From Rhodanobacteraceae bacterium (GTDB lineage Bacteria; Pseudomonadota; Gammaproteobacteria; Xanthomonadales; SZUA-5): 64,000 nt of DNA. Each line of letters starts with the position of its first letter. Position 1 is the stretch's first letter. The translations under genes and the position numbers were made by a program. Below, piece after piece: positions 33,602 through 51,649 of the stretch. The notes under the pieces were generated by a model. That model made no database searches. It was not told the origin of the DNA and was given only the letters and a program-made list of their open reading frames with translations. The stretch covers positions 129-64,128 of the forward strand of contig JADKFD010000036.1 of NCBI GenBank assembly GCA_016717705.1, written 5' to 3'.

Positions 33602-35033
33602 GGGTGCGGGTGAAAGTGTAGTGAGTAAGAGCTGGCGTAAGTTGATCGAAATCGAAGGTGGCGATTGAGGGTCCGGGCATCCGGTGAAACGTACGATGAA
33701 CGTCAACGTCAATAGAACAGCGACGACGACGTCGCTCAAGCGCCCGGCTTCCAGGTTTTACCACGTTCACTCTCACTTGCCCACGGCACGCCCCAATCAC
33801 CGGGTACTTCGCCGCCACATATTCCTCGATCATCGCAACGAACTCCTCGGTGATGCGCTCGCCGCGCAGGGTTGCCACCTTGCTGCCGTCGATGAACACC
33901 GGCGCGGCCGGGCTTTCGCCGGTGCCGGGCAAGCTGATGCCAATGTTGGCCTGCTTGCTCTCGCCGGGTCCGTTGACGATGCAGCCCATCACCGCGAGCG
34001 TCAGGTCCTCGACGCCGCGATAACGCAGGCGCCAGTCCGGCATGCGTTCGCGCACATGGTCCTGGACGGTCTTGGCCAATTCCTGGAAGAAGCTGCTGGT
34101 GGTGCGGCCGCAGCCGGGGCAGGCGGTGACCATCGGCGTGAAGGCGCGCAAACCCATGGTCTGCAGCAGTTCCTGGGCGACGATCACTTCGGTCGTGCGG
34201 CTTTCGCCCGGCTCGGGCGTCAGCGAGATGCGGATGGTGTCGCCGATGCCCTCCTGCAGCAGCACCGCCAGCGCGGCGGTCGAGGCGACGATGCCCTTGC
34301 TGCCCATGCCGGCCTCGGTCAGGCCCAGATGCAGCGGATAGTCGCTGCGCCGCGCCAGTTCGCGATACACCGCGATCAGGTCCTGCACGCCGCTGACCTT
34401 GCACGAAACGATGATGCGATCGGCGGAAAGGCCGATTTCCTCGGCTTTGGCCGCGCTCAGCAGTGCCGACTGGATCAGCGCCTCGCGCGCCACCGCGGGG
34501 GCGTCGAGCGGAGCGTCCGACGCCGCATTGGCATCCATCAAGCGCGTCAACAGACTCTGGTCCAGACTGCCCCAGTTGGCGCCAATGCGCACCGGCTTGT
34601 CGTAGCGGATGGCGAGTTCGATGATCGTCGCGAACTGCGTATCGCGCTTGTTGCCAAAGCCCACGTTACCGGGGTTGATCCGGTATTTCCCCAGCGCCTG
34701 CGCGCAATCCGGATGGCGCGTCAGCAGCAGATGGCCGTTGTAATGGAAATCACCGATCAGCGGCACCGCCACCGACATGCGATCCAGCTTCTCGCGGATG
34801 CGCGGCACGGCGGCGGCCGCTTCCTCGGTGTTGACGGTGATGCGCACCAGTTCCGAACCGGCGCGCCACAACTGGGCAACCTGGCGCGTCGTGGAATCGA
34901 TGTCCGCAGTGTCGGTGTTGGTCATCGACTGCACCACCACCGGAGCGCCGGCACCGACGCTGATCGAACCGATACGCACAGCGAGGGTGTGGCGACGGGG
35001 CTGGGGGCCGTAGGTTGGCGTTGGAGCGGTCAT
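33459..35033 (-). CDS. ispG: 4-hydroxy-3-methylbut-2-enyl diphosphate synthase; ORF lacks a plausible stop (native end probably near 33795-33810)
   Basis: ATG 35033. [47 protein letters not shown]. After ...[10 protein letters not shown] the in-frame translation becomes nonsense-like ([18 protein letters not shown]...). It crosses a repeat element and overlaps the GNAT start. Confidence 0.85.
33608..33782. repeat. imperfect inverted repeat with GTGA-rich oligomer arms (same style as 40382 and 59788 elements)
   Basis: Left arm GGGTGAAAGTGTAGTGAGTAAGAG. Right arm TTTTACCACGTTCACTCTCACTTGCCC (reverse complement GGGCAAGTGAGAGTGAACGTGGTAAAA). The arms match only ~70% by eye. The ispG frame reads through this element. 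Confidence 0.5.
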
Positions 35034-35148: not shown

Positions 35149-36882
35149 TCACACCGTCGACCAGATCTCGTCCAGCTCCGCCGACGGCGGCGCTTCGGGT
35201 GCAGCCAGAGTCGCTCCCTGCGCTTGCTGTTCGCCATAGCGGAACTGTTTGTAGGCGCCGGAGTTCTCCACCAGGTCAAGCGATTCCAGCGGCTCGGACA
35301 GCACTCGAAGTTCCATGCCCATGGGATCGGGCAAGCGCAACAATTCGAGTCCACCGGTGGAATCGAGGATCGACGGCGCCAGCAGCGTCGGATGCTGCGA
35401 GCCATCGATCGCCAGCGGCGCCAGCAGCAGCCCGCGCAGAATCACGCGGCTGTTGTGCGCCTCGCTGGTCGCGCGCACCGCGATCGCCTCCACGCGCCGG
35501 CTCAGCAGTTGCACACCGGCCTCCAGGCTGTCGTTGTTGCCCCCCTTGAGCCAGCGCAGCACGCCGACCATCCAGTCGGGCTCATCGTCGTCGTCGGTCG
35601 CCGGCGCCGACAGCGCCACCAACTCACCCACCTTGGCCTTCAGGCCCTCGGCGTTTTCCCAGAACAGGCGGTAGCCACCCAGGCTCTGATCGACCACCCG
35701 GACGCGCAACATGGTCGGGGCCGCCGACTCGGCGCTCGCCTGCGCCCAGGCGGCCGAGCGCTCGCGATCGCTCAGGGTCACACCGCCGCCCAACTCCGCG
35801 ACGAACTCGTTGAAGTCACGCTTGCCGGCAGCCAGATAGTGCACCGCATGCAGACCGATGCAGGAATTCATGTTGTGGTTGGCCGGCAGTCGCGGATGCC
35901 CGCGTTCGCCGCTGAAGCTCCAGGCCACCGTCAACTTCTCGACCACCTCACCGGGCACGTCCGGCCCCAGGCCGAGACGGCCACGCACCGCCACCGGCGC
36001 GTCCAGGGAGGACAGCATGCGCAACTGGTTCTTCAGCGACTGCACCAGACCACTGCTGTCAAGGCGCCAGTAGCGCCCCTCGACTTCGGCGCGCGGCGAC
36101 ATCGGCGGAAGGTCCGAGCGCGGGTCGATGACGAAGGACCCGCTGGTGCCGTTCAGATCGACCCGGCAATGCGTCGACCAGACCTTGGCGGCCGCCTCGA
36201 CATCGACGATTTCCTTCTGCGTCAAGCGATAGGGATTGCCGATGAAGGTCAGCAGCGTCTGCAGGTAGACGCTCTCGGCGGTCAGCGTGATACCGCCGAC
36301 CTGACTGTCGGTCACCGCCTTGTCGGCCAGTTGCGACTCGTAGGCAAACCCGACCAGACGATGCAGCAGGCCCCACACACCGCTCGGTATCTCGCTGTAG
36401 GCGATGTAGCACTTGCTCAGCATCTGCGAGCAATGACAAAGGGCGCGCACCAGCGCCAGCGCGGTGCTGCGACCGCGCAGGAACGGCACATTGCCTTTCG
36501 GCGCGCAGTAGTCATGCACACAGGTGGCAAAACCGACCGCCAGTTCGCGGTGAAAATCGCGCATTACTGCGCCGATCTGGCGCTTCTGCAATGGCAGCGG
36601 CAGCGACTGGCCAAGGACGTGGCGCTCCATGCTGGAGATCACCACCGACACCGGATGGCGCATCTGTTCGAGGATTTCGATGCGCTGATTCGGTTCGACT
36701 TCCAGCTGGTTGAGTTCCTTCAGACCGTTGTACAGCAGGCGCGCGGTGGCGCCGCTGTTGGCCATCGGCAGCGCCTCGATCCACAGCTTGACGGCCTTGC
36801 CAGTGGTCGGAAACGCATCACGACCGGGTCGCTCGCGCTTGGGCAGCGCCCCCCTGAGCAACTCGAACGCGTTGTCAGCCAT
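35149..36882 (-). CDS. large cytoplasmic protein with C-terminal PilZ-like segment (D-x-S-x-G-G)
   Basis: ATG 36882 (AGGGAG upstream). 577 aa. [19 protein letters not shown] resembles the PilZ DxSxxG element, but no clean RxxxR lies upstream. It is divergent from the oxidoreductase gene. Confidence 0.6.
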
Positions 36883-37053
36883 AGGTCCAACTCCCTGCAC
36901 TGGGACTGCCGATGATAACTCGGCAACGGGCAGGCTCGACGGTTTTGCGGCCGACTCGGGTCGATTGAAAATTTAGCACTCATCACCGATTGCAGCCGAC
37001 CCATCCGCATACCTACACTCCACGCCCGGGGATTAGGCACAGGCGGGGCTTTG

Positions 37054-39453
37054 ATGTCGGATATCTTCGAAATTGCAATCGTGGGCTCGGGACCGGGTGG
37101 CATCAGTGCCGCGGCGCGGGCGGCCGAACTCAAGGTGTCGCATGTGTTGCTGGAAGCGGCGCCGCACCTGTCGAACACGATCTATCGCTATCAGAAAGGC
37201 AAGCACGTGATGGCCGAGCCCGAGGCTCTGCCCTTGCGTTCGCCGCTGACCTTCAGCGCCGGCAGTCGCGAGTCGATCCTCGAAGCCTGGGACGAAGGCG
37301 TCGCCAAGCTCGGCGTGAACATCCGTCACGGCGCCGAAATCACCGCGATCAAGAAGCTCGACGACCATTTCGAGCTGAGCATCGGGCGCAAGGACAAGGT
37401 GCTTGCACGCAACATCGTGCTCGGCGTAGGTCTGCAGGGCAACATCCGCAAGCTCGGCGTTCCTGGCGACGACGCGCCCTTCGTGCAGTACACGCTCGAC
37501 GATCCGGACGAGTACGAGGGCGAGACCATCATCGTCGTCGGCGCCGGCGATGCCGCGATCGAGAACGCCGTTGCGCTGGCCAAACAGAACCAGGTCGTCG
37601 TGGTCAATCGCCGCGACGAATTTGCGCGCGCCAAGGAAGGCAATCTGCGCAACATCAGCAAAGCCATCGAGGACGGCGTCATCGAGTGCTACTTCGGCAC
37701 CGCACCCGAGCGCGTCGACAAGTTGTCGGTAGGTCGCAAGCCGGGCCGCTTGATCCTGAATACGCCCAAGGGCCGCGCCCAGGTGCTGTGCGACCGCATC
37801 ATCGGTCGCCTCGGCGCCAATCCGCCGCGCGCTTTCGTCGAGGCCTGCGGCGTGGTGTTCCCGAACGCCGACCCTTCCGCGGTGCCGGCGATCAGCGCCA
37901 AGTACGAGAGCAACGTGCCGGGCCTGTACATCGTCGGCGCGCTCGGCGGCTATCCGCTGATCAAGCAGGCGATGAACCAGGGCTATGAAGTGGTCGAGTA
38001 CATCCTCGGCCGCAGCGTGGAGCCTGCCGACGAACCGCTGCTGCGCGCGAAGTTCCAGAGCATGGCCGGCTTCACTTCGGTTTCCGCGGCGCTGGAGAAG
38101 GTGCAGACCGCGGTGCCGCTGCTGGCCACGATCACGCCGCTGCAGTTGCGCGAGTTCATGATCGACTCGGGTATCCGCACGCCCAAGGCCGGCGAGGTGC
38201 TGTTCAAGCGCAACGACTACACCAACAGTTTCTACTGCATCGTCGAGGGCCAGGTGGAAGTGCTGGTCGACGAAGCCGCCGGCAAGCGCGTGGCGCTCGG
38301 CCCCGGCGAGTTCTTCGGCGAAATGAGCCTGATTTCCGGACGCCGCCGCAGCGCCACCGTGTTCGCCGGCGCCAACTGTGTGCTGATCGAGACGCCGCGG
38401 CGCTCGATGACCAAGCTGATCAACTCGGTCGATGCGGTCAAGAAACTGGTCGACCGCACCTTCGTCGAGCGCGCCATCCGCGCCCGCTTCGGCGACGAGG
38501 CGACCGCGGCGCAGATCAAGGAAGTGGTGTCCGGCGCCACGCTGCAGCGCTTCAAGGCCGGCGAGACGCTGTTCCGCGAGGGCGATGAAGGCGACTGCCT
38601 GCATCTGGTGCGGGTCGGCTCGCTGACCATCTCGCGCACCATCGGCGGCCGCGACATCGTGCTGTCCTATGTACCGGCCGGCAACTACGTCGGTGAAATG
38701 GCGGTGATCGGCGGCAGCAAGCGTTCCGCCACCGCCAAGGCCGCGGTCGCCACCGAGACCATCCGCGTCGAACGCGATGCCTTCCGCAAGCTGATGAACC
38801 AGAACCCGCTGCTGCGGGCGAAACTGGCTCAGGAAGTCAAGCAGCGCACGGCGGAAAACATCACCATGCAGGCCGCCGCTTCCGGCGGCGACATCATCTC
38901 CTTCCTGGTCGGCCAGGGCCTCGGCGAGGCCACCGACGTCCTGCTTATCGACGAATCGCTGTGCGTGCGCTGCGACAACTGCGAAAAGGCCTGCGCCGAG
39001 ACCCACGGCGGCACTTCGCGGCTGGATCGCGAGGCCGGGCCGACCTTCGCCAACGTCCACGTGCCGACCTCGTGCCGGCATTGCGAACATCCCCACTGCA
39101 TGAAGGACTGTCCGGCGGATGCGATCCACCGCGCGCCGAATGGCGAGGTCTACATCGCCGACAACTGCATCGGCTGCGGCAACTGCGAGCGCAACTGCCC
39201 TTACGGTGTGATCCACATGTCGGCCAAACCGAAGAAGAAGCCCGGTCTGCTGCAGTGGCTGCTGCTCGGCGCCGGCCCGGGGCCCGGCGAATCCCCCTAT
39301 GACCCCGACAGCCACGAGAAGAAGGCGGTCAAGTGCGATATGTGCAAGGACATCAAGGGCGGTGCATCGTGCGTGCGCGCCTGCCCGACCGGCGCGGCGA
39401 TTCGCATCAGCCCGGAACAACTGCCTGAATACGCCTTTGCCCGGGGGCCGTAA
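37054..39453 (+). CDS. FAD/NAD(P)-binding oxidoreductase fused to two cNMP-binding domains and a poly-ferredoxin (4Fe-4S) domain
   Basis: Rossmann motifs VGSGPGG and VGAGDAA. cNMP modules FGEMSLISGRRRSATV and VGEMAVIGGSKRSATAKA. Cys clusters CVRCDNCEKAC, CRHCEHPHCMKDCP, CIGCGNCERNCP and CDMC..(x)..CVRACP. No signal peptide. Confidence 0.85.
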   Translation: MSDIFEIAIVGSGPGGISAAARAAELKVSHVLLEAAPHLSNTIYRYQKGKHVMAEPEALPLRSPLTFSAGSRESILEAWDEGVAKLGVNIRHGAEITAIKKLDDHFELSIGRKDKVLARNIVLGVGLQGNIRKLGVPGDDAPFVQYTLDDPDEYEGETIIVVGAGDAAIENAVALAKQNQVVVVNRRDEFARAKEGNLRNISKAIEDGVIECYFGTAPERVDKLSVGRKPGRLILNTPKGRAQVLCDRIIGRLGANPPRAFVEACGVVFPNADPSAVPAISAKYESNVPGLYIVGALGGYPLIKQAMNQGYEVVEYILGRSVEPADEPLLRAKFQSMAGFTSVSAALEKVQTAVPLLATITPLQLREFMIDSGIRTPKAGEVLFKRNDYTNSFYCIVEGQVEVLVDEAAGKRVALGPGEFFGEMSLISGRRRSATVFAGANCVLIETPRRSMTKLINSVDAVKKLVDRTFVERAIRARFGDEATAAQIKEVVSGATLQRFKAGETLFREGDEGDCLHLVRVGSLTISRTIGGRDIVLSYVPAGNYVGEMAVIGGSKRSATAKAAVATETIRVERDAFRKLMNQNPLLRAKLAQEVKQRTAENITMQAAASGGDIISFLVGQGLGEATDVLLIDESLCVRCDNCEKACAETHGGTSRLDREAGPTFANVHVPTSCRHCEHPHCMKDCPADAIHRAPNGEVYIADNCIGCGNCERNCPYGVIHMSAKPKKKPGLLQWLLLGAGPGPGESPYDPDSHEKKAVKCDMCKDIKGGASCVRACPTGAAIRISPEQLPEYAFARGP

Positions 39454-39455
39454 CG

Positions 39456-40349
39456 ATGCATGACTCAATCCTCGACTATCGCGGCTTCCGCTATCTGTGG
39501 GTGGCGTTGATCCTGTCCATCGGGTCGATCGTGGCCTACCTCTGGCATGACCCGATCGGCGTGCCCAACGGCGGATCCTGGCTGGGCTACACGCTGGGCA
39601 CCATCGGCGCCCTGCTGATCCTGTGGCTGCTCTGGTTCGGCGTGCGCAAGCGCCGCTACTCCGGCGCCACCGGCAGTGTGCGCGGCTGGTTGTCGGCGCA
39701 CGTGTATCTGGGCACCACACTGATCCTGATCGCCTTCCTGCACGCGGGCTTCCAGGTTGGCTGGAACATCCACACGCTGGCACTGGTGCTGATGCTGCTG
39801 GTGATCTTCAGCGGCTTTTTTGGTGTCTATGCCTACCTGCGCTATCCGGCGATGATGACGCGCAATCGCGCCGACAGCACCCGCGACGCAATGCTTGCCG
39901 AGATCCGCGAACTCGACGGACAGACGTTGCAACTCGCCGACAAGGTCGACAAGAGCATCCACGATGCGATCTTGAGTTCGATCCAGCACAGCCAACTCGG
40001 CGGCGGCGTCTGGGCACAATTGACCCGGCGCGACGATTCGGCAATCGCCCTGGCCAAGCTCAAGGAAGCAGTACTGAAGTCCAACGGCGAGTCCAAGCAA
40101 TCGAAGTCCGGCCAGACCATGGTGATGATGGTGGATTTCCTCGCCAATCAGGCCAACGATACCCAATCGGAAAACCTGCGACGGCTGATCGACCTGGTCT
40201 CGCGCAAGCGCGCACTCGCCACCCGCGTGGCCCGCGACATCCAGTTGCAGGCGCTGATGGAAATCTGGCTGTACATCCACATTCCGCTGTCGCTGGGATT
40301 GCTCGGCGCATTGACCGCGCATGTGCTGTCGGTGTTTTTCTACTGGTAG
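39456..40349 (+). CDS. 5-TM membrane protein with two H-x13-H motifs (candidate di-haem b carrier)
   Basis: Starts 2 nt after the upstream stop. TM3 SAHVYLGTTLILIAFLHAG and the C-terminal TM YIHIPLSLGLLGALTAHVL each carry His-x13-His. A ~140-aa helical soluble insert lies between TM4 and TM5. Confidence 0.75.
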   Translation: MHDSILDYRGFRYLWVALILSIGSIVAYLWHDPIGVPNGGSWLGYTLGTIGALLILWLLWFGVRKRRYSGATGSVRGWLSAHVYLGTTLILIAFLHAGFQVGWNIHTLALVLMLLVIFSGFFGVYAYLRYPAMMTRNRADSTRDAMLAEIRELDGQTLQLADKVDKSIHDAILSSIQHSQLGGGVWAQLTRRDDSAIALAKLKEAVLKSNGESKQSKSGQTMVMMVDFLANQANDTQSENLRRLIDLVSRKRALATRVARDIQLQALMEIWLYIHIPLSLGLLGALTAHVLSVFFYW

Positions 40350-40381
40350 TGGGCGTTGTTTTCTTGCGGCTTTTCGCCGAT

Positions 40382-40473
40382 TGGTAAAACGTGAAAGGTG
40401 AAACGTGAAGAAGAGCGCGCGAATCGCATCCGTTGCAACGAAGTCCAATTTACGTTTCACGTTTCACGTTTTA
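40382..40473. repeat. inverted repeat with tandem GTGAAA(C/G) arms
   Basis: Left arm GGTAAAACGTGAAAGGTGAAACGTGAAG. Right arm TTTACGTTTCACGTTTCACGTTTTAC. It lies in the gap between the membrane-protein gene and the FHA-cytochrome gene. Confidence 0.9.
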
Positions 40474-40520
40474 CTGACTGCCCAGCAAAGTGACGTCCAG
40501 GCGAAGGGAGCCGGCACACC

Positions 40521-42233
40521 ATGAAATGGTTCATTCGCCGCGTCATCAAGAAGGGCAAGGGCAGCCTGCAGTTCGAGGAGGAAATTCATTTTGGCGAAAC
40601 CCTGACCATTGGCCGCGCTGCCAATCAGGCCATCTTCATCAACGATCTGCGCGCGGCGCTGGAACATGCCCGCGTGGTCGCGCTGGGCAACGGCCGTTTT
40701 CGCGTCGAATCGCTGGTGGCTGCAGGCGTCCGCATCGATGGCCGCTTCGAACATTCGGCCACGGCGACTGCAGGCAGCGCCATCGAGGTGGGCAACCTGC
40801 GCATCACGCTGGTCGACCCGCCGGCGGATTTCGAAGCGGCGGTCGAAGTGGGTCTGGTCGACAAGGCCGAAGTTGCCGCGCGCGAAGTATCCGAGGCGCT
40901 GCCGCAATCGCTGGCCGAAACCGGCCTGCGCAAACGCCGCTGGTCATGGGCCCTGCTGCTGTTGACGCTGACATTCGGACTGGCGATTCCGGTGACCGCG
41001 CATTTCGTGCCCACCTTGCGCTCGCTGACCAAGGATGTGCCGGCGATCGGCATGTCGACCTGGGACACCGGGCCACTGGCGTCGGCCCACCACACCATGG
41101 CCAACGACTGCCAGAGTTGTCACGGCACGCCGTTCAGTGTCATTGCGGACGACAAATGCATCGTCTGTCATACCAACACCAAGGCGCACGCCGATCCGGT
41201 GCGTTATGCATTGCCCGAAATTGCGGCCGCTCGCTGCGCCCACTGCCATCGCGACCACAACGGCGACACCGGACTGGTGCGCGCCGACCAGGAACTGTGC
41301 AGCGACTGCCATCGCAATCTGACCGAGCGCGTGAACAACGATACGCAATTGGCCAATGTCGGCGACTTCGGCACCGACCATCCGCAATTCAAGGTGCTGC
41401 TGCCGGCCTGGGACGCGCAGGGCAAGTTCACGCCCGAACGCGTGAGCATGGACCAGAAGCCGCTGACCGAGCGTTCCGGCCTCAAGTTCCCGCATTCCAA
41501 GCACCTGAACCCCGAAGGCCTGAAGACGCCCGACGGTGTGAAGAAGCTCGATTGCGCCAACTGCCACGCGCCCGAACCCGGAGGCGCGCTGCTGGCGCCG
41601 ATCGATTTCGAGCAGCATTGCCAGTCCTGCCATCGCCTCGATTTCGATCTGCGCATTCCCGACCGTCAGGTGGTCCACGGTGACGTGGCGGAGGTGCAAT
41701 TCACGCTTGCCGAGTTCTATTCCAAGGTGGCGCTGGAAGGCGGCTACGATGACGTCAAGGCACCGGTATTCGTGCGCGAACGCCGTCGTCCGGGGCAACC
41801 CGCGATGACCGCGCAGGAACAGCGTGATGCCCTGGTCTGGGCGCGCGACAAAGCCACCGAGATGACCGACTCGCTGATCAACAGCCGCACCTGTACCGTC
41901 TGCCATACGGTTTCCAAGGACCCGGCGGCCACCCAACTGGGCTGGGTGGTTGCGCCGGTACGCGTGGCCGGCGCGTGGTACGAGAAAGCCAGCTTCACGC
42001 ATGCCAAACACGCCACCATGGGCTGCAAGGACTGCCACGCGGCAGATCTCTCGCTGAGCAGCGCCGACCTTTTGATCCCGGATATCGGCGCGGTCGGTTC
42101 CAACAATGCCGTGGCACCTTACGCCTGCCGTGACTGCCACGGCGGCGAGAATGCCAAGCACAAGCTGGGCAGCACCTGCATCGATTGCCACGGATTCCAT
42201 CAGGCGCCGATGCCGTTGCGAGCCGCCAAATAG
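40521..42233 (+). CDS. FHA-like domain / single TM / decahaem c-type cytochrome
   Basis: ATG 40521 (GAAGGGAG upstream). N-terminus ...LTIGRAANQAIFINDLRAALEHARVV...VRIDGR...IEVGNLRITL is FHA-like, with some canonical residues substituted. TM segment WSWALLLLTLTFGLAIPVTA. Ten CXXCH: CQSCH, CIVCH, CAHCH, CSDCH, CANCH, CQSCH, CTVCH, CKDCH, CRDCH, CIDCH. Confidence 0.85.
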   Translation: MKWFIRRVIKKGKGSLQFEEEIHFGETLTIGRAANQAIFINDLRAALEHARVVALGNGRFRVESLVAAGVRIDGRFEHSATATAGSAIEVGNLRITLVDPPADFEAAVEVGLVDKAEVAAREVSEALPQSLAETGLRKRRWSWALLLLTLTFGLAIPVTAHFVPTLRSLTKDVPAIGMSTWDTGPLASAHHTMANDCQSCHGTPFSVIADDKCIVCHTNTKAHADPVRYALPEIAAARCAHCHRDHNGDTGLVRADQELCSDCHRNLTERVNNDTQLANVGDFGTDHPQFKVLLPAWDAQGKFTPERVSMDQKPLTERSGLKFPHSKHLNPEGLKTPDGVKKLDCANCHAPEPGGALLAPIDFEQHCQSCHRLDFDLRIPDRQVVHGDVAEVQFTLAEFYSKVALEGGYDDVKAPVFVRERRRPGQPAMTAQEQRDALVWARDKATEMTDSLINSRTCTVCHTVSKDPAATQLGWVVAPVRVAGAWYEKASFTHAKHATMGCKDCHAADLSLSSADLLIPDIGAVGSNNAVAPYACRDCHGGENAKHKLGSTCIDCHGFHQAPMPLRAAK

Positions 42234-42403
42234 GCGCTTGAATCGGGAGTGCGGCGCCAGTCGCCGCCTCCCGGAAGCCCGCAGGCGCTGATGGGGGGTG
42301 CGGGGCTTCTGGCCGACCCAGATCAGCAGCGGCGCCGCAGTCGCTGCGCCCTGCAAACGCACCCAAGCGCCTGCCAGCCGACCACTCCAAAATGCTCTTA
42401 CTT

Positions 42404-42507
42404 GGGGCGGTGGCCAGCCACCGCCCCCTACACGACAAAGCGCCGGCAAGCCGGCGCTTTGAAGGAGCCTGAACCCCCGGAAGCGGCCAGCGGACCGCCT
42501 CCGGGGG
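42404..42507. terminator. three consecutive GC-rich hairpins between convergent genes
   Basis: GGGGCGGTGG-CCAG-CCACCGCCCC (42404-42427). AAAGCGCCGGC-AA-GCCGGCGCTTT (42437-42460). CCCCCGGA..GCGG...CCGC..TCCGGGGG (42474-42507). Confidence 0.6.
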
Positions 42508-42514
42508 ATCACGC

Positions 42515-43552
42515 TCAATGCACGTTTGAACCAAAGTGCGCGCGGCAACCGCGATCCACCCACAAGCCACGGCGCGGCGTGTATCCCCAGGTCACGCCTT
42601 CGATGCAGGATTGACGCGAATACTGTTCGATCAGCACTGGCGTCCCGAAACGGGCATTCCAGCTGCACAGGGCATAGGCCCCGTCGAGACTTGCGCAGTC
42701 CATGGTGAAGCCGTCGTAATCGTCGGCGTCATAAAAACCGCCGCTCGGGCGATAGGCCTCGGCGAACACGCCGCCGCAACCGCGATCGACCCAGATCACA
42801 CCCGGCTTCTGACCCCAGGTGCGGCCTTCCACACACAGACTGCTGCGCGGAACCTGGCGCAGCAATTCAACCTGGCCGCGGAAGGCCACGTTGCATTCGC
42901 GATAGCCACGCACGCTCTGACAGGTGACTTCCGGAAGCTGACCGACCACCGGTGCCGATTCGATGAAGCGCGCACGGCAACCGCCGTGAACCCAGACCAT
43001 GCCCGGGCGATGGCCCCAGTTGCTGCCTTCAACGCAGCGGGTCGACGACAGTTGGCGCTCGATCACCGGAACATTGCGAAAACCGGTCGCACATTCGCGA
43101 TAGCGACCATCATTGGACTCGCAGGCGACGATCTGTCCACGCCCGGGGGGCTGATTGGTCCAACCCGGCGTGGTCCACCGCACCGGGGGCGGCGGCGGCG
43201 AGGGCGTGCCCGCATAGGTGTTGCCATCGACTCGATCGCGCAGCGATTGCGTCATGTCGTCTGTGATCTGCGCATAGGTCCAGCCACGCGGAATCTGTTC
43301 CAGGTAGAACTCCAGCTGGTCTTCCGGCAACGGACGGCCACCGGACAATTCGGCGAATTGCGCCTCCAGCACGCGCACCTGCTCCGGCTGCGTCAACTTG
43401 CGCAAGTCCTCAGGCGCGTACTTTGCGTTCGGCTCCTGAACCGCGGGCGTCTTGCCACTGGGTGTCTGCGCAAAGGCCAGGGGCATCGATGCAAACGTCA
43501 GTAACAGCAATGCGAGCGTGCTTGCCTTCAAAACGGTCGCTGCAAATCTCAT
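42515..43552 (-). CDS. secreted DUF3011-type Cys-repeat protein
   Basis: Signal peptide present. There are three repeats of the C.S..G.YREC.....V.L..Q.S...C.EG..WG.....(I/V)WV..GCRA.F pattern. Confidence 0.75.
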   Translation of the reverse strand: MRFAATVLKASTLALLLLTFASMPLAFAQTPSGKTPAVQEPNAKYAPEDLRKLTQPEQVRVLEAQFAELSGGRPLPEDQLEFYLEQIPRGWTYAQITDDMTQSLRDRVDGNTYAGTPSPPPPPVRWTTPGWTNQPPGRGQIVACESNDGRYRECATGFRNVPVIERQLSSTRCVEGSNWGHRPGMVWVHGGCRARFIESAPVVGQLPEVTCQSVRGYRECNVAFRGQVELLRQVPRSSLCVEGRTWGQKPGVIWVDRGCGGVFAEAYRPSGGFYDADDYDGFTMDCASLDGAYALCSWNARFGTPVLIEQYSRQSCIEGVTWGYTPRRGLWVDRGCRAHFGSNVH

Positions 43553-43879
43553 GTCACGTCTCCAGGGACTGCGCTCGGCGAACAGCCGCGCGGGAAACTC
43601 ATGTTAGCGCGGGTCCTGAGCCACGGTATGTGCGGCAGCAAACGCAGTTGGTTGCGCGACAGCTTGGGAAATCGGAAGCCCTCCCCCGGCGAATCTGTAG
43701 TGCGTTCCACGGCATTGCCCGCAGGGATCTGGAGATCGCCGCCGCTGAAGGCAAAAGCGTATTGATTGAATTGATATCCTCAGTCCACGCAAACGACGTG
43801 AATCCGAGGTTATGATCTGGACGCCGCGCATGACTCCGGGGGGAGCCATCGGCGCATAGAACTTCTGGGAGGGTGCACG

Positions 43880-45925
43880 ATGGCTTTCAGACGCATGCAC
43901 GGCTTGGCGTTGGGGATTGCAGTTGCCCTGCTCGCCGGGTGCGGAGGTGGCAGTGGCCGCGACACGACCGGCACGGCGCCGCCGCCCAACGCCCCATCCG
44001 AGGGTTGCACCGGCAGTTGCGCTGGAGCGGAATCGCGCCTGACCGTCGCCGACGTGCAGACGGTGATCGCGCAGGCCGTGGCCGAAGCCCAGGCCAACAA
44101 CCTGCCCGCCACCATCGCGGTGGTCGACCGTGTCGGCAATGTGCTCGGTGTCTATCGGATGACCAACGCACAGCCCACGGTTGCGATTCACTCCGAGCGC
44201 GATGTCGCCGGTGGTCTCGAAGACCTGATCGTGCCGTCGGAGCTCGCCGCGATTGCCAAGGCGATGACCGGCGCCTACCTGTCGAGCGAAGGCAACGCTT
44301 TCACCACCCGGACAGCCAGCCAGATCGTCCAGCAGGCCTTCAATCCGGGCGAGAGCAATGCGCCTTCAGGACCGTTGTTCGGCGTGCAGTTCTCGCAACT
44401 GCCCTGTTCCGACTTCATGACCCGGTTCCAGACCGGACAAGCGGCCGGCCCCGGCCCGCGGCGCTCGCCGCTCGGACTGTCGGCGGACCCGGGCGGTTTT
44501 CCGCTGTACAAGAATGGTGTTCCGGTCGGCGGCATCGGCGTTGCCGCTGACCCCGACTACACCCTGGACGCACGCATCTTCGATCGCGACCGCGACGTCG
44601 ACGAGATGATCGCGCTTGCCGGTACCTTCAACTTTGGCGCGCCAGTCAACCGCCGCGCCGACGCGATCACCGCCGATGGCAAGACCTTCCGCTACAGCGA
44701 CGTCGAATTCGCCGATCTGGCGCGCACACCGGGCAATGCGCCGGCGCTCACCGCGACAATGGGCGCATTCATTAAGGTGCCGGCCTATGCCGACGCGATT
44801 CCGCGCGAAGGCACCGCGTTTGGCACGGCCCTGTCGGGTATCCGCGCGGCCGGCAGCGAACTGTCGGACCTCGACGCCTTCATCGTGGTCGATGCCGCCA
44901 ACCAGAATCGCTATCCGGCGCGCGCCGGCACCGATGGCAGCGGCGCGCTGAGCGCCAACGAGGCACAGACCGTGCTGCGCGAAGCGCTCAAGGTCGCCAA
45001 CCGCGCCCGCGCGCAGATTCGCCAGCCGTTTGGAACGCAGGCGCGCGTCAGTGTTTCGGTCGTGGACACCAACGGCGCGGTGCTGGCACTGGCGCGCACC
45101 CGCGATGCGCCGGTGTTCGGCCTCGATGTTTCCCTGCAGAAAGCGCGTTCGGCGATGTTCTTTTCCAATGCCAACGCGGCGGCGGGACTGAACAGCCTGC
45201 CGAATCCAAGCTATTTCGGCGACACGGTGAACCTCGGTGCGACCCCGCCGGAAGTGCGCTTGCGCACCGTCGGCACGGGCACTCTGAGCACGACGGTGGC
45301 GCGCACCCGCGAGTTCCTCGGTTCAGCCACGGCGCTCGCCGACGGCGCCATCGCATTCAGCGACCGTGCGATCGGCAATCTGGCACGGCCGTACTATCCG
45401 GACGGCATCACCGGCCAAGCGGCGGGCCCGTTCAGCAACGAATTCAATTCCTGGAGCCCATTCGACGTCGGGCTGCAACTGGACCTGGCCTACAGCCAGA
45501 TCGCGCTGCACGTAGCCCACTATCTCAATCAGGCTGGACTTGCGCTGTACCTGGATGGGCAACTGCTGGCGCCACCGCCTTCGACCCAGAATCCGGTTCC
45601 GCTGCCCGATATCGGCTTCAACTGCACCGGGTTGCCCAGCCTCGCCAATGGCATCCAGATCTTTCCCGGCGCGGTGCCGATCTACCGCGGCGATCGCCTG
45701 GTCGGTGCGATCGGCGTTTCCGGCGACGGCGTCGATCAGGACGACATGGTGTCCTTCCTCGGTTTGCACAACGCCAGCGTTGCGCTGAACGGTGCCATCG
45801 GCCATGCGCCGACGACGCGTCGAGCCGATCTGCAGGTCCCACGCGGTGCGCGACTGCGTTATGTGCAATGTCCGCAGGCGCCTTTCATCGACTCCACCGA
45901 ACAGAACGTGTGCGAGGGCAAGTGA
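43880..45925 (+). CDS. lipoprotein with two GlcG/DUF336 (haem-degrading-like) domains
   Basis: Canonical lipobox ALLAGC. First domain ...ATIAVVDRVGNVLGVYRM...GGFPLYKNGVPVGGIGVAAD. Second domain ...VSVVDTNGAVLALARTRDAP...IFPGAVPIYRGDRLVGAIGVSGDGVDQDDMV. Confidence 0.75.
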   Translation: MAFRRMHGLALGIAVALLAGCGGGSGRDTTGTAPPPNAPSEGCTGSCAGAESRLTVADVQTVIAQAVAEAQANNLPATIAVVDRVGNVLGVYRMTNAQPTVAIHSERDVAGGLEDLIVPSELAAIAKAMTGAYLSSEGNAFTTRTASQIVQQAFNPGESNAPSGPLFGVQFSQLPCSDFMTRFQTGQAAGPGPRRSPLGLSADPGGFPLYKNGVPVGGIGVAADPDYTLDARIFDRDRDVDEMIALAGTFNFGAPVNRRADAITADGKTFRYSDVEFADLARTPGNAPALTATMGAFIKVPAYADAIPREGTAFGTALSGIRAAGSELSDLDAFIVVDAANQNRYPARAGTDGSGALSANEAQTVLREALKVANRARAQIRQPFGTQARVSVSVVDTNGAVLALARTRDAPVFGLDVSLQKARSAMFFSNANAAAGLNSLPNPSYFGDTVNLGATPPEVRLRTVGTGTLSTTVARTREFLGSATALADGAIAFSDRAIGNLARPYYPDGITGQAAGPFSNEFNSWSPFDVGLQLDLAYSQIALHVAHYLNQAGLALYLDGQLLAPPPSTQNPVPLPDIGFNCTGLPSLANGIQIFPGAVPIYRGDRLVGAIGVSGDGVDQDDMVSFLGLHNASVALNGAIGHAPTTRRADLQVPRGARLRYVQCPQAPFIDSTEQNVCEGK

Positions 45926-45926
45926 C

Positions 45927-47720
45927 ATGAGCCTCTGTCTCTCCGCCGCTTTGGCCGCGCTGATGTGCCCGGCCGCCCTGCCCGCCAATTCGATGTCCAG
46001 CGTGCAGCCGATGATCGGCCATTCGCTGCCGGCCTATCTGTACGATCCGGACCAGTCGAGCGTCGTGCGCCGGCGTCCGGGCCATCCAGCGCCCGGACCG
46101 CGCACCCGACCCGACCAGAATCCGGGCAACGCCGACCCGGCGCCGATCGACGCGGTCGGTGAATTCGTCCCGGTGCCCGATCGCTGGCGCCTGATGGAGG
46201 CGCTCGGCTTCAAGCACCCGTGGTACGACCCGTACAACCAGAATATCTGGAAGGGCGACAAGCCGATCAACGAGGATGAGTGGTTCCTCAGTCTGCTGGC
46301 AGTGTCCGATACGCTGCTCGAACCGCGCTCGCTGCCGACGCCGGTGGGTGCGCAGTCGAGCGCCAATCCAGGCGCCGTGGACATTTTCTCCGGCTTCGAT
46401 CAGACCATTTTGTCGCAGACAGTGCTCGCGGGTCTGGTCTATTACAAGGGCAATACCACCTTCAAGCCGCCCGAATACGAGTACCGCCTGACGCTGGCGT
46501 TGAACTACAACCGCGTCGAAGTCGACGATGTGCGCGCGCTCACCATCGATCCGCGCAAGGGCACGGTGCGCGACGACGGCTTCATCGCGGTGCAGGAAGT
46601 TTTCGCCGACTTCCATTTGCGCGATGTTTCGCCGCGCTATGACTTCGATGCGATCCGCTTCGGCATTCAGCCCTTCTCCAGCGATTTCCGCGGCTTTCTG
46701 TTCCAGGATCTGCAGTTCGGCGTGCGCCTGTTCGGCAACCGCGACAACAACCACCGCCAATACAACCTGGCGTGGTTCCGCCGCGTCGAGAAGGACTTGA
46801 ATTCCGGTCTCAACGACGTCGCCGAGGGATTGCGCGACGACGATGTGTTCATCGCCAACTACTACTGGCAGGACCTGTTCGGACTGCTCGGTTTCACCTC
46901 GCAGGCAGTCGTGGCCTACAACCGCAATCGCGAGGACGAACTGTTCTTCGATTCCAATGGCTTCATCCAGCGACCATCCTCGATCGGCACCGAGCGTACC
47001 CGCGAATACGATGCGGTCTACATCGGCTACAACGGCGATGGCCACATCGGCCGCTTCAATCTATCGACCTCCGCCACCTACGTCTTCGGCGACAACGACA
47101 ACACCTTCACCGGCGAGAACAGCGATATCGCCGCCGGCTTCTTTGCCGCCGAACTGTCGCGCGACTTCGACTGGATTCGCCCGCGCCTGTCGATCGCCTA
47201 CGCCAGCGGCGACGACGATCCTTTCGACGACAAGAGCAACGGTTACGACGCGATCTTCGAAAACCCGATCTTCGCCGGCGCCGACACCAGCTACTGGATC
47301 CGCCAGAACATCCCGCTGATCGGTGGCGGTGGCGTCGCCCTCTCCGGGCGCAACGGGTTGCTGCCGTCGCTGCGCCCGTCCAAGGAACAGGGACAGTCGA
47401 ATTTCGAGAATCCGGGCCTGCACCTGATTGGCATTGGCGCCGATTTCGACATCACGCCGGAATCGCGGGTGTCCTTCAACCTCAACCAGCTGTGGTTCGA
47501 CGACACCGCGGTGCTCGAAGTGGCGCGCAACCAGGCACCGATCGACAAGGAGATCGGCACCGACCTGTCGGTGGCCTGGATCTGGCGCCCGTTCATGAGC
47601 CAGAACGTCGTCGTGCGACTGTCCGGCGCCCTGCTCGAACCCGGCAGCGGCCTCGAAGACCTCTACGGCGAACGCGACCCGTTCTACACCGTGTTGGGCA
47701 ATGTGATTCTGACGTACTGA
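45927..47720 (+). CDS. outer-membrane beta-barrel protein (porin-like)
   Basis: ATG 45927, 1 nt after the upstream stop. Signal MSLCLSAALAALMCPAALPA. Abundant alternating-hydrophobic strands. The C-terminus ...YTVLGNVILTY ends in an aromatic residue. Confidence 0.7.
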   Translation: MSLCLSAALAALMCPAALPANSMSSVQPMIGHSLPAYLYDPDQSSVVRRRPGHPAPGPRTRPDQNPGNADPAPIDAVGEFVPVPDRWRLMEALGFKHPWYDPYNQNIWKGDKPINEDEWFLSLLAVSDTLLEPRSLPTPVGAQSSANPGAVDIFSGFDQTILSQTVLAGLVYYKGNTTFKPPEYEYRLTLALNYNRVEVDDVRALTIDPRKGTVRDDGFIAVQEVFADFHLRDVSPRYDFDAIRFGIQPFSSDFRGFLFQDLQFGVRLFGNRDNNHRQYNLAWFRRVEKDLNSGLNDVAEGLRDDDVFIANYYWQDLFGLLGFTSQAVVAYNRNREDELFFDSNGFIQRPSSIGTERTREYDAVYIGYNGDGHIGRFNLSTSATYVFGDNDNTFTGENSDIAAGFFAAELSRDFDWIRPRLSIAYASGDDDPFDDKSNGYDAIFENPIFAGADTSYWIRQNIPLIGGGGVALSGRNGLLPSLRPSKEQGQSNFENPGLHLIGIGADFDITPESRVSFNLNQLWFDDTAVLEVARNQAPIDKEIGTDLSVAWIWRPFMSQNVVVRLSGALLEPGSGLEDLYGERDPFYTVLGNVILTY

Positions 47721-47727
47721 GGCGCTC

Positions 47728-50700
47728 ATGAAGCTCACGACGATTTCCGCATTGCTGGCGCTGGTGATCGGAGCGACCAGCCTGTCGCAGGTGGCTCTTG
47801 CCTCGGGCGGCGAAACGCCGGTGGACCGCGTCTACACCAAGGCGCCGGATGCCCCGAAGAACCAGACCTGGGCGCAGGCCGACGCCAAGAGCGCCGGCTG
47901 CATGAGCTGCCACAATCCGATCGACCAGAAATCCATGCACGCCTCGGAAGCGGTGGTGCTGGGCTGCGTCGACTGCCACGGCGGCGATCCGACAATCCAC
48001 GGGCCCAAAGACGGGAACGGGCACGTCGCCAGCGCCCCGGGACATGGCAACGAAGGCGAACACGGCCACGCGGCTGCCGCCTATGGCCCCGAGTACACGG
48101 CGGCGATGGAACAAGCACATGTGCTGCCGCGCTATCCGCACACCTGGCACTACCCGAGTTCGGCCAATCCCGAACGCAGCTACACGCTGTTGAATCGGGA
48201 AGCACCCGAGTTCACCCGCTTCGTCAACCCGAGCGATCTGCGCATCGCCCATGAGGCCTGCGGCGCCTGCCACATGCCGATCATCGAGGCGCCAAGCGCT
48301 CGATCATGGCCACCAGCGCCATGCTCTGGGGTGGTGCTTCCTACAACAACGGGATTTTGCCCTACAAGCGCTACATCCTCGGCGAAGGTTACGAGCGCGA
48401 TGGCGAGGCCGCGATCATCAAGGCGCTGCAGCCAGTCACGCCGGACATGGCCGTTAAGGGCGCGCTGGAGCAACTGGTGCCACTGCCGGCCTGGGAAGTG
48501 ATTCCGCCGGGCGACGTCTTCCGCGTGTTCGAGCGCGGTGGCCGCAACATCAATACCACCTTCCCGGAAACCGGATTGCCGAACTCACTGGGCCAGATTC
48601 AGCGCCTTGAGGAACCCGGGCGCCCCGACTTCAAGCAATCCAATCGCGGCCCGGGTACCGGTCAGCGCATCGGCGTGCCGGTGATCAACATCACCAAGAC
48701 CCGCCTCAATGATCCCAACATGTGGTTCATGGGCACCAACGACCAACCGGGCGACTTCCGCCAGTCCGGCTGCAGCGCCTGTCATGTGCCTTACGCCAAT
48801 GATCGCGATCCGCGCCACTCCGGGCCCTACGCGCAGCACGGCCACATGGGCCTGAGCCAGCAGTCCGACCCGACCATCCCGAAGGACCAGCCCGGACACC
48901 CGCTGAAGCACGCCTTCACGCGTTCGATCCCGACCAGCCAGTGCATGAACTGCCACATGCACCAGCCGAACATGTTCATCAACACCTTCCTCGGCTACAC
49001 CATGTGGGACTACGAGTCCGACGCGCCCTTCATGTGGCCGGAGAAGCAGCAGTACCCGAGCCACGACGAGATGCGCAAGGCGCTCGACCGCAACCCGGAG
49101 GAAGCGGTGATCCGTGGCAAGTGGGCCGACCTGGAATTCGTCAAGGAAGTCTCGGCGCTGAATCCGCAGCTGAAGGACACCCAGTTCGCCGACTACCACG
49201 GCCATGGCTGGAACTTCCGCGCCATCTTCAAGCGTGACCGCAAGGGCAACCTGCTCGACGCCGAAGGCGCCAAGGTTTCCGACGACGACCCGAAGAAGTT
49301 CGAGAAAGCCGTGCACATGTCGAGCATCCACGTCGACCTCGGCTTCCATTGCGTCGACTGCCACTTCGCCCAGGACATGCACGGCAACGGCCATATCGTC
49401 GGCGAAGTCGCCCAGGGCGTCGAGATCCAGTGCAAGGACTGCCATGGCACGCCGGACGCCTATCCGAACCTGATCACCTCAGGTCCGATGGCCAGCAAGC
49501 AAGGCCGCAACCTCGGCGACCTGCGCAATCCGGACGGCAAGAAGCGCTTCGAGTGGATCGACGGCAAACTGATCCAGCGCTCGATCATGGAAAGCGGGCT
49601 GCAGTGGGAAATGTCGCTGGTCAAGGACGTCTCCGACAAGGCCAGCCCGGCCTACAACGCCAAGGCCGATCGCGCGCACACCATGCGCAAGGATCCGCTC
49701 AACCAGAGCTACGGATCAGACGTGCCGCCAGCGAGTACGCGCATGGCGAGGACAAGATGCTGTGCTTCAGCTGCCACACCAGCTGGACCACCAGCTGCGG
49801 CGGCTGCCATCTGCCGATCCAGGCCAACTGGAAGACCGAGCGCCATCATTTCGAAGGCGGCGAGACGCGCAACTACGCGACCTACAACCCGCAGGTCGCG
49901 CGCGACGACGTGTTCATGCTGGCCAAGCATGGCGAGGCCAAGGGCTACAAGTACGCGCCGATGCGTTCGTCCAGCGCCCTGATCCTGTCGTCGACCAACT
50001 CCAACCGCGAGCGCATCTACATCCAGCAGCCGCCGATCGCGGCTTCCGGCTACAGCTCGCAGGCTCTGGCACCGCACTATCCGCACACCGAGCGCCGCAC
50101 CGAAACCAAGACCTGTACCGATTGTCATCTGTCCCAGGAAGGCGACAACAACGCCATCATGGCCCAGTTGCTCGGCCAGGGCACCAAGTTCATGGACTTC
50201 CTCGGCTTCAATGCCTGGGTCGGCGGCGAAGGCGAGATCAGCGCCGTGCGCGTCACCGAATGGGAAGAGCCGCAGGCGGTGGTCGGCAGCTATCTGCATC
50301 GCTATGCCTACCCCGACTGGTACAAGAAGCACGAGGACAACGGGCGCCAGCTGACCGAGGCCTACAAGCATTCCGCGGGCGTGGCCAACTGCATCCAGCT
50401 GCGCGGCGAGTACGTCTACGTGGCCGAAGGCAGCAAGGGCTTCCGGGTCTACGACGCGGCCAGCATCGCCAACAAGGGCATCAGCGAACGCATCATCACC
50501 GCACCCTTCTCGCCGCTGGGCCACGACACCCACATCGACACCAAGAACGCCACTTGTGTCGTGCTGCCGACCACGCAGCCGGTGCAGCCCTCGCGCAACG
50601 AGGGCGATCTGATGCGCAAGGTGAACCTGGAACAGCCGGCGCATCCGATCTACCGCTATGCGTTCATCAGTGATGCCGAGGAAGGCCTGATCGTGGTCGA

Positions 50701-51610
50701 CATCGACACGCTGCACGATGGCGAACCGCGCGACAATTTCCTCGAGCGCGCACTGACCTGGAACGAGAACGGCGTACTGACCGGCGCCCGCCATCTGACC
50801 ATCGCCGGCTACTGGTTCTACTTTGCGACGCCCAAGGGCATCGTCGTGGTCAACATGAATGACCCGCTGAAGCCGCAATACGTGCGCACCGTGGATCTGC
50901 CGGATGTGCGCGGCAGCCAGCAGCAGTTCCGCTACCTGTTCGTGACCACCGGCCGCGGACTGGAGGTGGTCGACATCACCCATCCGGACAAGGCCTATGT
51001 CGTGGCCGATGCCTACGTGCCGATCAAGGACGCACACAAGGTGCACGTCGCGCGCACATACGCCTACGTCGCCGCCGGAGCCGAGGGGCTGGTGATCGTC
51101 GACATCACCAAGCCGGTGAAGCCCGTGCTGTACCAGCGTTTCGACGGCGGCGGCGCCATCTCCGATTCGCGCGACGTCACGGTGGCCTCGACCAATGCCT
51201 CGCTGTATGCCTACATCGCCGACGGTCGCAACGGATTGCACGTGGTGCAACTGACCGGCCCGGACATCCAGCCGAAGTTCTACGGCTACAGCCCGGAACC
51301 GATGCCCAAGCTGATCGCCAGCTACGCCACCGGCAAGGCGGCACTGTCGCTGTCGGACGCCCTGGAACGCGACCGCGCGGTCGATGAAACCGGCGGCCAG
51401 ATCTCGGTACTTGGCCGCATCGGCGCACGTCCGTTGAACGAGGCCGAGCAGCGCGCTTTCTTCCTCGATACCAACGGCAACCCGTGGTTCGTCAGCGACA
51501 AGGTCGATGGTCCGCGTGGAATCACTTCGCCGGTGCTGCCGCGCAAGAACAACCGCACCTACGATCAGCAGCGGGCCGAGGCGGCAAAACCGGCTGGCTC
51601 GCCGCACTGA
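47728..51610 (+). CDS. secreted decahaem c-type cytochrome fused to LVIVD-repeat beta-propeller; two frameshifts as sequenced
   Basis: Three ORFs (47728..48501, 48306..49982, 49349..51610) join at about 48286-48293 (...CHMPIIEA/KRSIMATSAMLWGG) and about 49722-49732 (...NQSYGSDVP/ASEYAHGEDKMLCFSCH). Signal peptide present. Ten CXXCH: CMSCH, CVDCH, CGACH, CSACH, CMNCH, CVDCH, CKDCH, CFSCH, CGGCH, CTDCH. The C-terminal half has GLIVVDI, GIVVVNM, GLEVVDI, GLVIVDI and GLHVVQL. Confidence 0.8.
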
Positions 51611-51618
51611 GGGCAGTT

Positions 51619-51649
51619 ACGGTCAGGGCGCGCAAGGCGCCCTGACCGT
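51619..51649 (+). terminator. GC-rich hairpin after the cytochrome gene
   Basis: ACGGTCAGGGCGC..GCGCCCTGACCGT lies 9 nt after the stop. It has no clear U-tract. Confidence 0.5.

Follow-up and report, generated by a model that had tools for sequence, protein, structure and literature searches.

What can a cell do with a gene cluster that seems to lead from a cytoplasmic flavoprotein out to the cell envelope? The question arises at 35-52 kb of a 64,000-nucleotide stretch of Rhodanobacteraceae DNA (contig JADKFD010000036.1 of assembly GCA_016717705.1; the whole stretch is called the window hereafter), where the original prediction saw a conduit carrying electrons from a cytoplasmic nucleotide cofactor to the cell surface. 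All six proteins of the candidate system were found where they had been placed and with the features ascribed to them. Gene content and conservation support well a conserved electron-transfer system that leads from a cytoplasmic nucleotide cofactor towards the outer membrane (OM). We read it, with moderate confidence, as a regulated, quinone-independent, NADPH-driven electron-export chain of the NOX/MsrQ kind in two modules, by which electrons of cytoplasmic NADPH would probably cross the inner membrane (IM) and reach large multihaem proteins near the OM. The tiers of the predicted conduit are real and a chain towards the OM is supported; transfer to the surface by a cytochrome inside a barrel is not. 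The genes of the system are the following.

37054-39453 (+): cytoplasmic flavo-iron-sulphur (flavo-FeS) protein of 799 amino acids (aa), with Pyr_redox_3 (5e-27), two cNMP_binding domains (6.5e-41) and 4Fe-4S dicluster domains
39456-40349 (+): inner-membrane protein of 297 aa with five predicted transmembrane (TM) helices, H82-x13-H96 and H275-x13-H289
40521-42233 (+): anchored periplasmic decahaem cytochrome of 570 aa, with 10 CxxCH motifs, one TM helix (about residues 142-165) and an N-terminal FHA-like region
43880-45925 (+): OM-type lipoprotein of 681 aa, with lipobox LLAGC and three HbpS/GlcG-like (DUF336) stretches (Pfam, 3.3e-27)
45924-47720 (+): OM beta-barrel of 598 aa, about 18 strands in an AlphaFold2 (AF2) model
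47728-51610 (+): decahaem cytochrome fused to an LVIVD beta-propeller, 1294 aa after repair, with 10 CxxCH motifs and LVIVD at 5.8e-19

True genes were separated from shadow open reading frames (ORFs) by third-position GC, the window being about 64% G+C. Families were searched in Pfam and NCBIfam, and PDB sequence and profile searches, AF2 models and Foldseek were also used. For comparison we fetched related loci, among them those of the close relatives L092 and L093; the membrane protein of L092 is 96% identical to that of the window.

For the C-terminal part of the large cytochrome, databases contain more than 2000 relatives that are 60-70% identical, and species-representative genomes gave at least 568 matches. 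Its hosts belong to the Lysobacterales, Burkholderiales, Methylococcales, Pseudomonadales, Nevskiales and Alphaproteobacteria, and include Dokdonella, Limnobacter, Usitatibacter, Methylobacter, Marinobacter, Nevskia, Fontimonas, Steroidobacteraceae and Cellvibrionales; among those in culture are Dokdonella sp. MW10, Limnobacter alexandrii LZ-4, Marinobacter sp. S6332, Fontimonas sp. and Oceanicoccus sp. KOV_DT_Chl.

The gene order is conserved along with the genes. The barrel adjoins the cytochrome in 67 of 68 loci and the HbpS-like lipoprotein adjoins the barrel in 60 of 61, while the 297-aa protein and the anchored decahaem lie directly upstream of this outer trio in 47 of 54. The flavo-FeS gene is upstream in 27 loci and elsewhere in the locus in 16; in Burkholderiales it typically lies downstream, after a gene for a c554-like tetrahaem cytochrome (four CxxCH). 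This tetrahaem gene is found in 40 loci and is absent from the Lysobacterales subgroup of the window. The co-occurrence of the cluster genes is far beyond chance, and the two sub-clusters (37054-42233 and 43880-51610) are syntenic in most genomes, so that the first condition named as refuting the original prediction, that they are never syntenic, fails.

The inner module and its likeness to ptd

The 799-aa flavoprotein combines three kinds of domain. Its flavin domain (also matched by Pyr_redox_2 in Pfam) resembles YpdA/Bdr and the TrxR-type ferredoxin-NADP reductases in PDB sequence searches, which likewise liken its middle part to the tandem CNB domains of the PKA regulatory subunit. The C-terminus resembles the HycB/HydN ferredoxin domain and has four Cys motifs, from which up to four [4Fe-4S] clusters can be read directly as the predicted complement. 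Both CNB domains keep the phosphate-binding cassette GEM...RSAT, and 'VVNRRDEFARA' resembles the NADPH-binding HRRDxFRA of thioredoxin reductase; a redox-active CxxC is lacking. Orthologues across the fetched loci are 47-80% identical.

In the 297-aa membrane protein, H82 and H96 lie on TM3 and H275 and H289 on TM5, two helices predicted to share the same orientation, and all four histidines are invariant, together with H106, in 50 orthologues that are 38-68% identical. The four histidines are arranged as expected for two stacked b-haems, and it is from this pattern that we infer the binding of haem b; the protein is a putative di-haem-b transmembrane electron carrier of the PtdF kind. It had no significant Pfam, NCBIfam or PDB match even with permissive thresholds: PF01794 gave none at E ≤ 10, and the best hit was Ni_hydr_CYTB at 12.8 bits. 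One source calls a homologue 'Ferric reductase like transmembrane component'. The family is large, with 2533 clusters at 50% identity (E ≤ 1e-3), of which 288 are reached at E ≤ 1e-30.

All 51 orthologues of the anchored decahaem have 10 CxxCH motifs, and their identity across classes is 26-51%. Positive residues precede the TM helix, which places the N-terminus inside and the haems outside. The FHA-like fusion noted earlier is a weak call, its match in the window being sub-threshold (E 0.098) and that of the Oceanicoccus orthologue 'weak'. About a dozen of the fetched loci have genes for PP2C and FHA proteins downstream, and such neighbours are consistent with phospho-threonine control of the FHA-bearing decahaem. 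In the Oceanicoccus locus (L006, 13511-15398), a PP2C phosphatase and a double-FHA protein are encoded after the c554-like gene, an arrangement also seen in L025, L026, L033, L035, L039, L050, L054 and L067.

These components have a counterpart in ptdABCDEFG, a putative porin-cytochrome operon whose function was called completely unknown (bioRxiv 10.1101/2023.11.21.568154). Its products are PtdA (pentahaem cytochrome with a beta-sandwich), PtdB (porin), PtdC (FAD/NAD(P) oxidoreductase), PtdD (periplasmic tetrahaem), PtdE (cNMP-binding 4Fe-4S protein), PtdF (ferric-reductase-like TM protein) and PtdG (periplasmic decahaem) (bioRxiv 10.1101/2023.11.21.568154). One fetched locus, L096, encodes a TM protein, a decahaem, a tetrahaem, a flavoprotein, a pentahaem whose C-terminal domain is free of haem, a 522-aa OM protein ending in Phe and another tetrahaem; it fits the operon gene for gene, with the Ptd assignment made by composition only. 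When the cluster-member accessions of 20 representatives were compared with those listed for PtdF in Table S7, none matched directly.

The counterparts of PtdC and PtdE are present in the window as one fused protein, 52% identical to the fused protein of L096. The TM protein is 35% identical (E 2e-50) to that of L096, which is Ptd-type by composition, and over residues 138-561 the decahaem shares 32% identity (E 3e-77) with that of L096, where the FHA part carried in addition by the window protein is absent. Many relatives of the window have a PtdD-like tetrahaem, whereas the window itself has none. It also has no pentahaem, and in its place stand the triple HbpS-like lipoprotein, the 18-strand barrel and the decahaem-LVIVD protein, for which neither phmmer nor blastp gave a match to the pentahaem or OM protein of L096. 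What the window encodes is thus an inner module of the Ptd type, NOX-like in its logic, joined to a different outer module. The earlier view that this is not a characterised system holds for the outer half, of which we found no description in the searchable literature on LVIVD or HbpS proteins with multihaem cytochromes or extracellular electron transfer, and has to be revised for the inner half, which corresponds to ptdC, ptdE, ptdF and ptdG of a 2023-24 preprint. Among the homologues found, none has an established function of an unrelated kind.

As a unit the inner trio is portable, being joined to various outer modules or to none. A reduced form of the cluster has the flavoprotein, the TM protein, a 485-aa multihaem cytochrome, a 365-aa protein without assignment, a 1051-aa LVIVD protein and the c554-like protein, and no HbpS. 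At L097 (2986-12533) the flavo-FeS, TM and decahaem genes occur without an outer module and are divergent from genes for a CCP/MauG di-haem peroxidase, a cupredoxin and two proteins without assignment, a context that hints at alternative periplasmic acceptors. The representative library further holds a protein of 1110 aa (P0483) in which FAD, two cNMP and Fer4 domains are fused to a domain like the 297-aa protein; this is weak evidence, since read-through of adjacent genes is a possible origin.

Precedents for electron transfer from NAD(P)H through a di-haem-b protein to the periplasm are given by Fre-MsrQ-MsrP and NOX (PMC5676040, PMC12525009). As in these systems, a cytoplasmic NAD(P)H flavoprotein would feed a membrane protein with two putative bis-His sites on two helices, and transfer to a periplasmic acceptor is proposed to be outward and quinone-independent. 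The window protein differs in that it shows no similarity to PF01794 or to a solved protein of the ferric-reductase-domain (FRD) group, and has five TM helices rather than six, with a His spacing of 13/13. The flavoprotein has a TrxR fold with FeS and CNB domains and not an FNR-type dehydrogenase domain, and the acceptor is a 10-haem cytochrome.

The outer module

The lipoprotein belongs to the HbpS/GlcG family (PF03928) and matches EfgA/GlcG in the PDB at 1.8e-9, with EfgA best. A lipobox is present in 50 of 62 orthologues, with G or S at +2 (OM-type sorting residues). Four Cys are conserved in at least 90% of the orthologues, and Y133, Y210, Y227, K127, K421 and M94 are also conserved, whereas no His is invariant, which leaves the protein with a weak standing as a redox tier. 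The haem-domain-like lipoprotein of the original prediction is thus borne out as to family and less so as to a part in electron transfer.

The start codon of the barrel gene overlaps the stop codon of the lipoprotein gene (ATGA). For the barrel, AF2 with an alignment of 36 sequences (pLDDT 61.6 overall and mostly 70-87 in the strands, pTM 0.63) gave a model of 18 strands, which span residues 120-596. The model leaves out about 115 conserved residues that extend the N-terminus, and AF2 could not place a highly conserved acidic insert of about 70 aa (residues 428-498) between strands 13 and 14. This insert is Gly-rich (SGDDDPFDD...ENPIFAGADTSYWIRQN.PLIGGGG...GQSNFENPG) and is among the two most conserved stretches of the barrel. 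It may form a constriction of the lumen or a cation-binding loop. The barrel sequence had no significant Pfam, NCBIfam or PDB match, permissive thresholds included.

By structure, the barrel is AlgE/Occ-like. Foldseek returned AlgE first (7e-14), followed by OccD/OccK of the OprD family and general porins, the best matches running from E 7e-14 to 1e-8; MtrB was not among the top 50. Sequence identity to AlgE and the Occ channels is only 8-13%, the N-terminal extension and the acidic insert are additional to them, and the locus lacks the polysaccharide-export or nutrient-uptake genes that would give the same context. By analogy with Occ channels, the lumen may take up the long conserved loop that stands at the L7 position. 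MtrB encloses MtrA with 26 strands. With 18 strands and a conserved loop that would fold inwards, the modelled barrel is more likely a dedicated solute channel or an anchor than the sheath of a cytochrome. This result comes near to the second condition named as refuting the original prediction, a barrel predicted too narrow for a cytochrome. The barrel polypeptide itself has no CxxCH, which shows that it is not Cyc2-like.

The large cytochrome has, after repair of its reading frame, CxxCH motifs at residues 58, 80, 178, 349, 406, 542, 569, 680, 691 and 797, all 10 of them invariant in 73 sequences. Beside the 10 proximal His there are 15 further invariant His and 5 invariant Met, and with so many possible ligands, counting reveals no catalytic haem with an open site. 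The propeller is modelled confidently (pLDDT about 90-97), and its Foldseek matches are generic propellers only. Across classes, identity is 60-74% in the middle part and 61-70% in the C-terminal part, against 26-51% for the anchored decahaem, which places the cytochrome-propeller among the most conserved components and suggests to us a constraint like that on an enzyme or on precise binding. LVIVD repeats were first described in cell-surface proteins (PMC2447325). The protein has an ordinary Sec (type I) signal peptide; a lipobox-like pattern is matched in 6 of 73 orthologues, and the examples listed look spurious. Type II secretion genes are found beside the cluster in one of about 82 loci only.

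Proposed electron flow and competing readings

In the export chain that we propose, NADPH would reduce the FAD of the TrxR-type flavin domain, and the fused HycB-type domain, with its up to four [4Fe-4S] clusters, would then relay the electrons to two b-haems held by the TM3 and TM5 histidines, and so across the IM into the anchored decahaem. The tandem CNB domains would gate this flow, and in this lineage the FHA-like cytoplasmic domain of the decahaem probably does so as well. The anchored decahaem would hand electrons to the decahaem-propeller, with the c554-like tetrahaem as a possible intermediate where it is present. The decahaem-propeller may be a terminal reductase or a substrate-binding element, and would work together with the triple HbpS/GlcG-like lipoprotein and the barrel of about 18 strands. 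Flow would be outward, with a chelated metal, O2 or another soluble oxidant as candidate acceptors. We infer this direction from thermodynamics: typical external donors would be working uphill twice over in reducing NADP+ against the membrane potential, and there is no coupling subunit. Such a chain would dissipate energy, and in aerobic heterotrophs this fits an accessory function under regulation, such as the reduction of nutrient metals, the handling of oxidants or the chemistry of reactive oxygen species, better than it fits respiration.

Several observations weigh against this proposal. Pfam and PDB profile searches gave no sequence link between the membrane protein and the ferric-reductase-domain, cytochrome b/b561 or solved families. 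The haem region of the large cytochrome is modelled at pLDDT below 50, has no PDB or Foldseek match, and no catalytic site was identified in it. Confidence in the barrel model is moderate, the N-terminal extension and insert together leaving 186 residues unmodelled. The LVIVD repeats possibly leave room for exposure at the surface, and the terminal gene, that of the large cytochrome, is frame-broken in the window.

The alternative that survives best takes the cluster for a true porin-cytochrome conduit of the Mtr/Pcc kind, with a cytochrome or the lipoprotein in the barrel and a decahaem-propeller at the surface acting on minerals, electrodes or Fe(II). We think it unlikely. Its gene logic does parallel that of MtrCAB, PioAB, MtoAB and Geobacter Pcc (an OM barrel encoded together with a decahaem of the periplasm and a further large multihaem protein, here with an OM lipoprotein), and the near-constant company that barrel (67/68) and lipoprotein (60/61) keep with the cytochrome also speaks for it, as do the LVIVD repeats, which are typical of surface proteins (PMC2447325), and the porin-cytochrome idea proposed by the ptd authors for the sister cluster (bioRxiv 10.1101/2023.11.21.568154). 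The proteins themselves, however, are unlike those families, as the original prediction had judged by eye and as the Pfam, NCBIfam and PDB searches confirm. The decahaem scores 17.6 bits against a cut-off of 192.2 for the MtrA/DmsE family TIGR03508 and differs in being membrane-anchored with an FHA-like domain; the cytochromes fall far below the cut-offs of the DmsE/MtrA and GSU2203 families; and the outer cytochrome is not a lipoprotein like MtrC and OmcA and has no match to an MtrC domain in Pfam. The barrel, with about 18 strands against the 26 of the MtrB type, no MtrB in its top 50 and no CxxCH, speaks against such a conduit, as does a lipoprotein with no invariant His. Input would come from NADPH through FeS and haem b, in contrast to quinol through CymA, ImcH or CbcL, and such a bypass of the quinones would conserve no energy. 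The hosts, moreover, are mostly aerobic heterotrophs. An AlgE/Occ-like barrel together with a cytochrome that has neither a real lipobox (the 6 of 73 matches looking spurious) nor conserved type II secretion neighbours leaves an Mtr-like conduit unsupported.

More doubtful still is a cNMP-gated NOX-like machine that would deliver NADPH electrons across both membranes to a surface-exposed decahaem-propeller. The delivery to the cell surface that had been claimed for the cytochrome is unproven, given its Sec signal without a real lipobox and the single locus with type II secretion genes. If such delivery were true, the cluster would be a new and very widespread route of extracellular reduction in aerobic soil, freshwater and marine Proteobacteria, used for example to reduce Fe(III) or Mn(III/IV) for nutrients or to produce extracellular superoxide, and it would cross the OM in a manner unlike Mtr, by an 18-strand barrel and a triple HbpS-like lipoprotein.

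A different doubt concerns the large cytochrome gene as it stands in the window. The very large decahaem-LVIVD protein has the 10 CxxCH motifs and the LVIVD propeller expected of it, yet it is not one ORF: it is split over three frames, with the motifs distributed as 3+4+3. The breaks were placed by alignment to L008 (the closest species-representative, 85% aa identity) and L092.

48290/48291 (+): first frame break, 1 nt missing (GAGGC-GCC; the relative has T)
49729/49730 (+): second frame break, 1 nt missing (CCGCC-AGC; the relative has G)

The breaks might be real, which would make the gene a pseudogene and the outer module dead in this organism. This we hold to be improbable, even though two of the three frameshifts detected in 64 kb fall within this one gene of 3.9 kb and all other genes of the cluster are intact. 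The large cytochrome is a single 1294-aa ORF in L092 and L093, and in all 72 species-representative genomes with enough upstream DNA it is one ORF of about 1250-1470 codons from stop to stop; these 72 intact orthologues have 10 CxxCH motifs, except for nine in one. The fragments in the window are 92-98% identical to L092 at the protein level and show no decay beyond the two indels, and the remaining genes at 29-48 kb are intact when compared with L092. Housekeeping sucA (2-oxoglutarate dehydrogenase E1, 55514-58476, +) carries the same kind of 1-nt deletion, a -1 shift near 56650-56680 that leaves it in two frames, where '...NPSHLEIIDPVVVGSVRARQ' continues as '...VVPILIHGDAAFSGQGVV' in the other frame. 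Each of the three removes one base from G/C-rich sequence, in the manner of consensus errors in long-read assemblies. Three such deletions in 64 kb, one of them in a housekeeping gene, make errors of the assembly consensus likely, and the frame breaks in the large cytochrome are likely to be of this origin. Two other loci, L005 (9246-13108, a contig of a metagenome-assembled genome in ENA) and L006 (8241-12019, Oceanicoccus sp. KOV_DT_Chl), each show one such break at a site unlike those of the window. A look-up of the exact truncated product of 257 aa and of the window barrel in independent assemblies found none on record.

Programmed frameshifting or recoding was also considered, because the window, L005 and L006 are all split and the 120 database homologues listed for the C-terminal part include no full-length one. 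It was rejected, as no two of the four breaks coincide in position and all 72 genomes, like L092 and L093, have the gene as a single ORF.

The cluster might also be a device that senses redox state or a ligand and is coupled to cNMP and phospho-threonine signalling, with no bulk electron pathway. HbpS works together with SenS/SenR. The HbpS family includes sensors, EfgA is the best PDB match of the lipoprotein, and the tandem CNB and FHA-like domains would suit such a device, as would the downstream PP2C and FHA genes in roughly a dozen loci. We nevertheless regard it as very unlikely, since 20 haems, up to four FeS clusters, FAD and two putative b-haems far exceed what a sensor needs, the conserved core has no output domain (kinase, cyclase or DNA-binding), and the flavin domain is of the NADPH-oxidoreductase type. 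Inward uptake of electrons from Fe(II), a cathode or another donor to NADP+ is scarcely credible: the wiring could in principle run in reverse and Marinobacter and Limnobacter are genera associated with lithotrophy or growth on cathodes, whereas to lift electrons from a high-potential donor to NADP+, and across the di-haem protein against the membrane potential, would be uphill twice over with no energy-coupling subunit in the cluster, and the system is widespread in ordinary aerobic heterotrophs.

The NADPH-driven export chain that we favour departs from the known routes of Gram-negative bacteria, which start at the quinone pool (CymA, ImcH, CbcL) and cross the OM inside a wide barrel of the MtrB type. 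It would start at an NADPH flavo-FeS protein, pass through a small four-His IM protein whose family has more than 2500 clusters at 50% identity, and end in interchangeable periplasmic or outer modules. Most hosts of the version found in the window are not known metal respirers. If the proposal is true, many ordinary aerobes own a regulated export of reducing power, which would bear on the question of which organisms account for iron and manganese reduction in oxic or hypoxic habitats and on which enzymes make bacterial extracellular superoxide.

Flanking and interrupting genes

Three further genes lie on the opposite strand beside or within the cluster.

33792-35033 (-): ispG (GcpE), just upstream of the region
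35149-36900 (-): divergent gene for a 583-aa protein, labelled FimW_N (PF27104) in the precomputed annotation of L092; the window copy has no Pfam match
42515-43552 (-): DUF3011 gene (Pfam, 3.7e-46) for a secreted, Cys-rich product

A PilZ-like protein had been noted at the left edge of the cluster. The product of this gene gave nothing significant in Pfam or NCBIfam, even at permissive thresholds; FimW is a regulator of type IV pili that binds c-di-GMP. Among the fetched loci the gene is confined to L092 and L093 and is absent from the other 80. The DUF3011 gene sits between the two halves and interrupts the cluster; the 80 related loci do not have it, and besides the window only the close relatives L088, L092 and L093 do. 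It is an insertion specific to this lineage and lies outside the system. Neither gene is conserved alongside the cluster, and both were ruled out as members of the system, the supposed PilZ-like gene included.

A scan for promoters and terminators at 36.7-52 kb gave no more signals than shuffled sequence. The stop-to-stop ORF of ispG runs far upstream of its true start and overlaps the frame of the FimW_N-like gene, an artefact of high GC. Elsewhere in the window, the ORFs 9633-10355 (-) and 10018-12363 (-) overlap by about 340 nt in different frames; both have high third-position GC and no Pfam match, and the pair may be another frameshifted gene.

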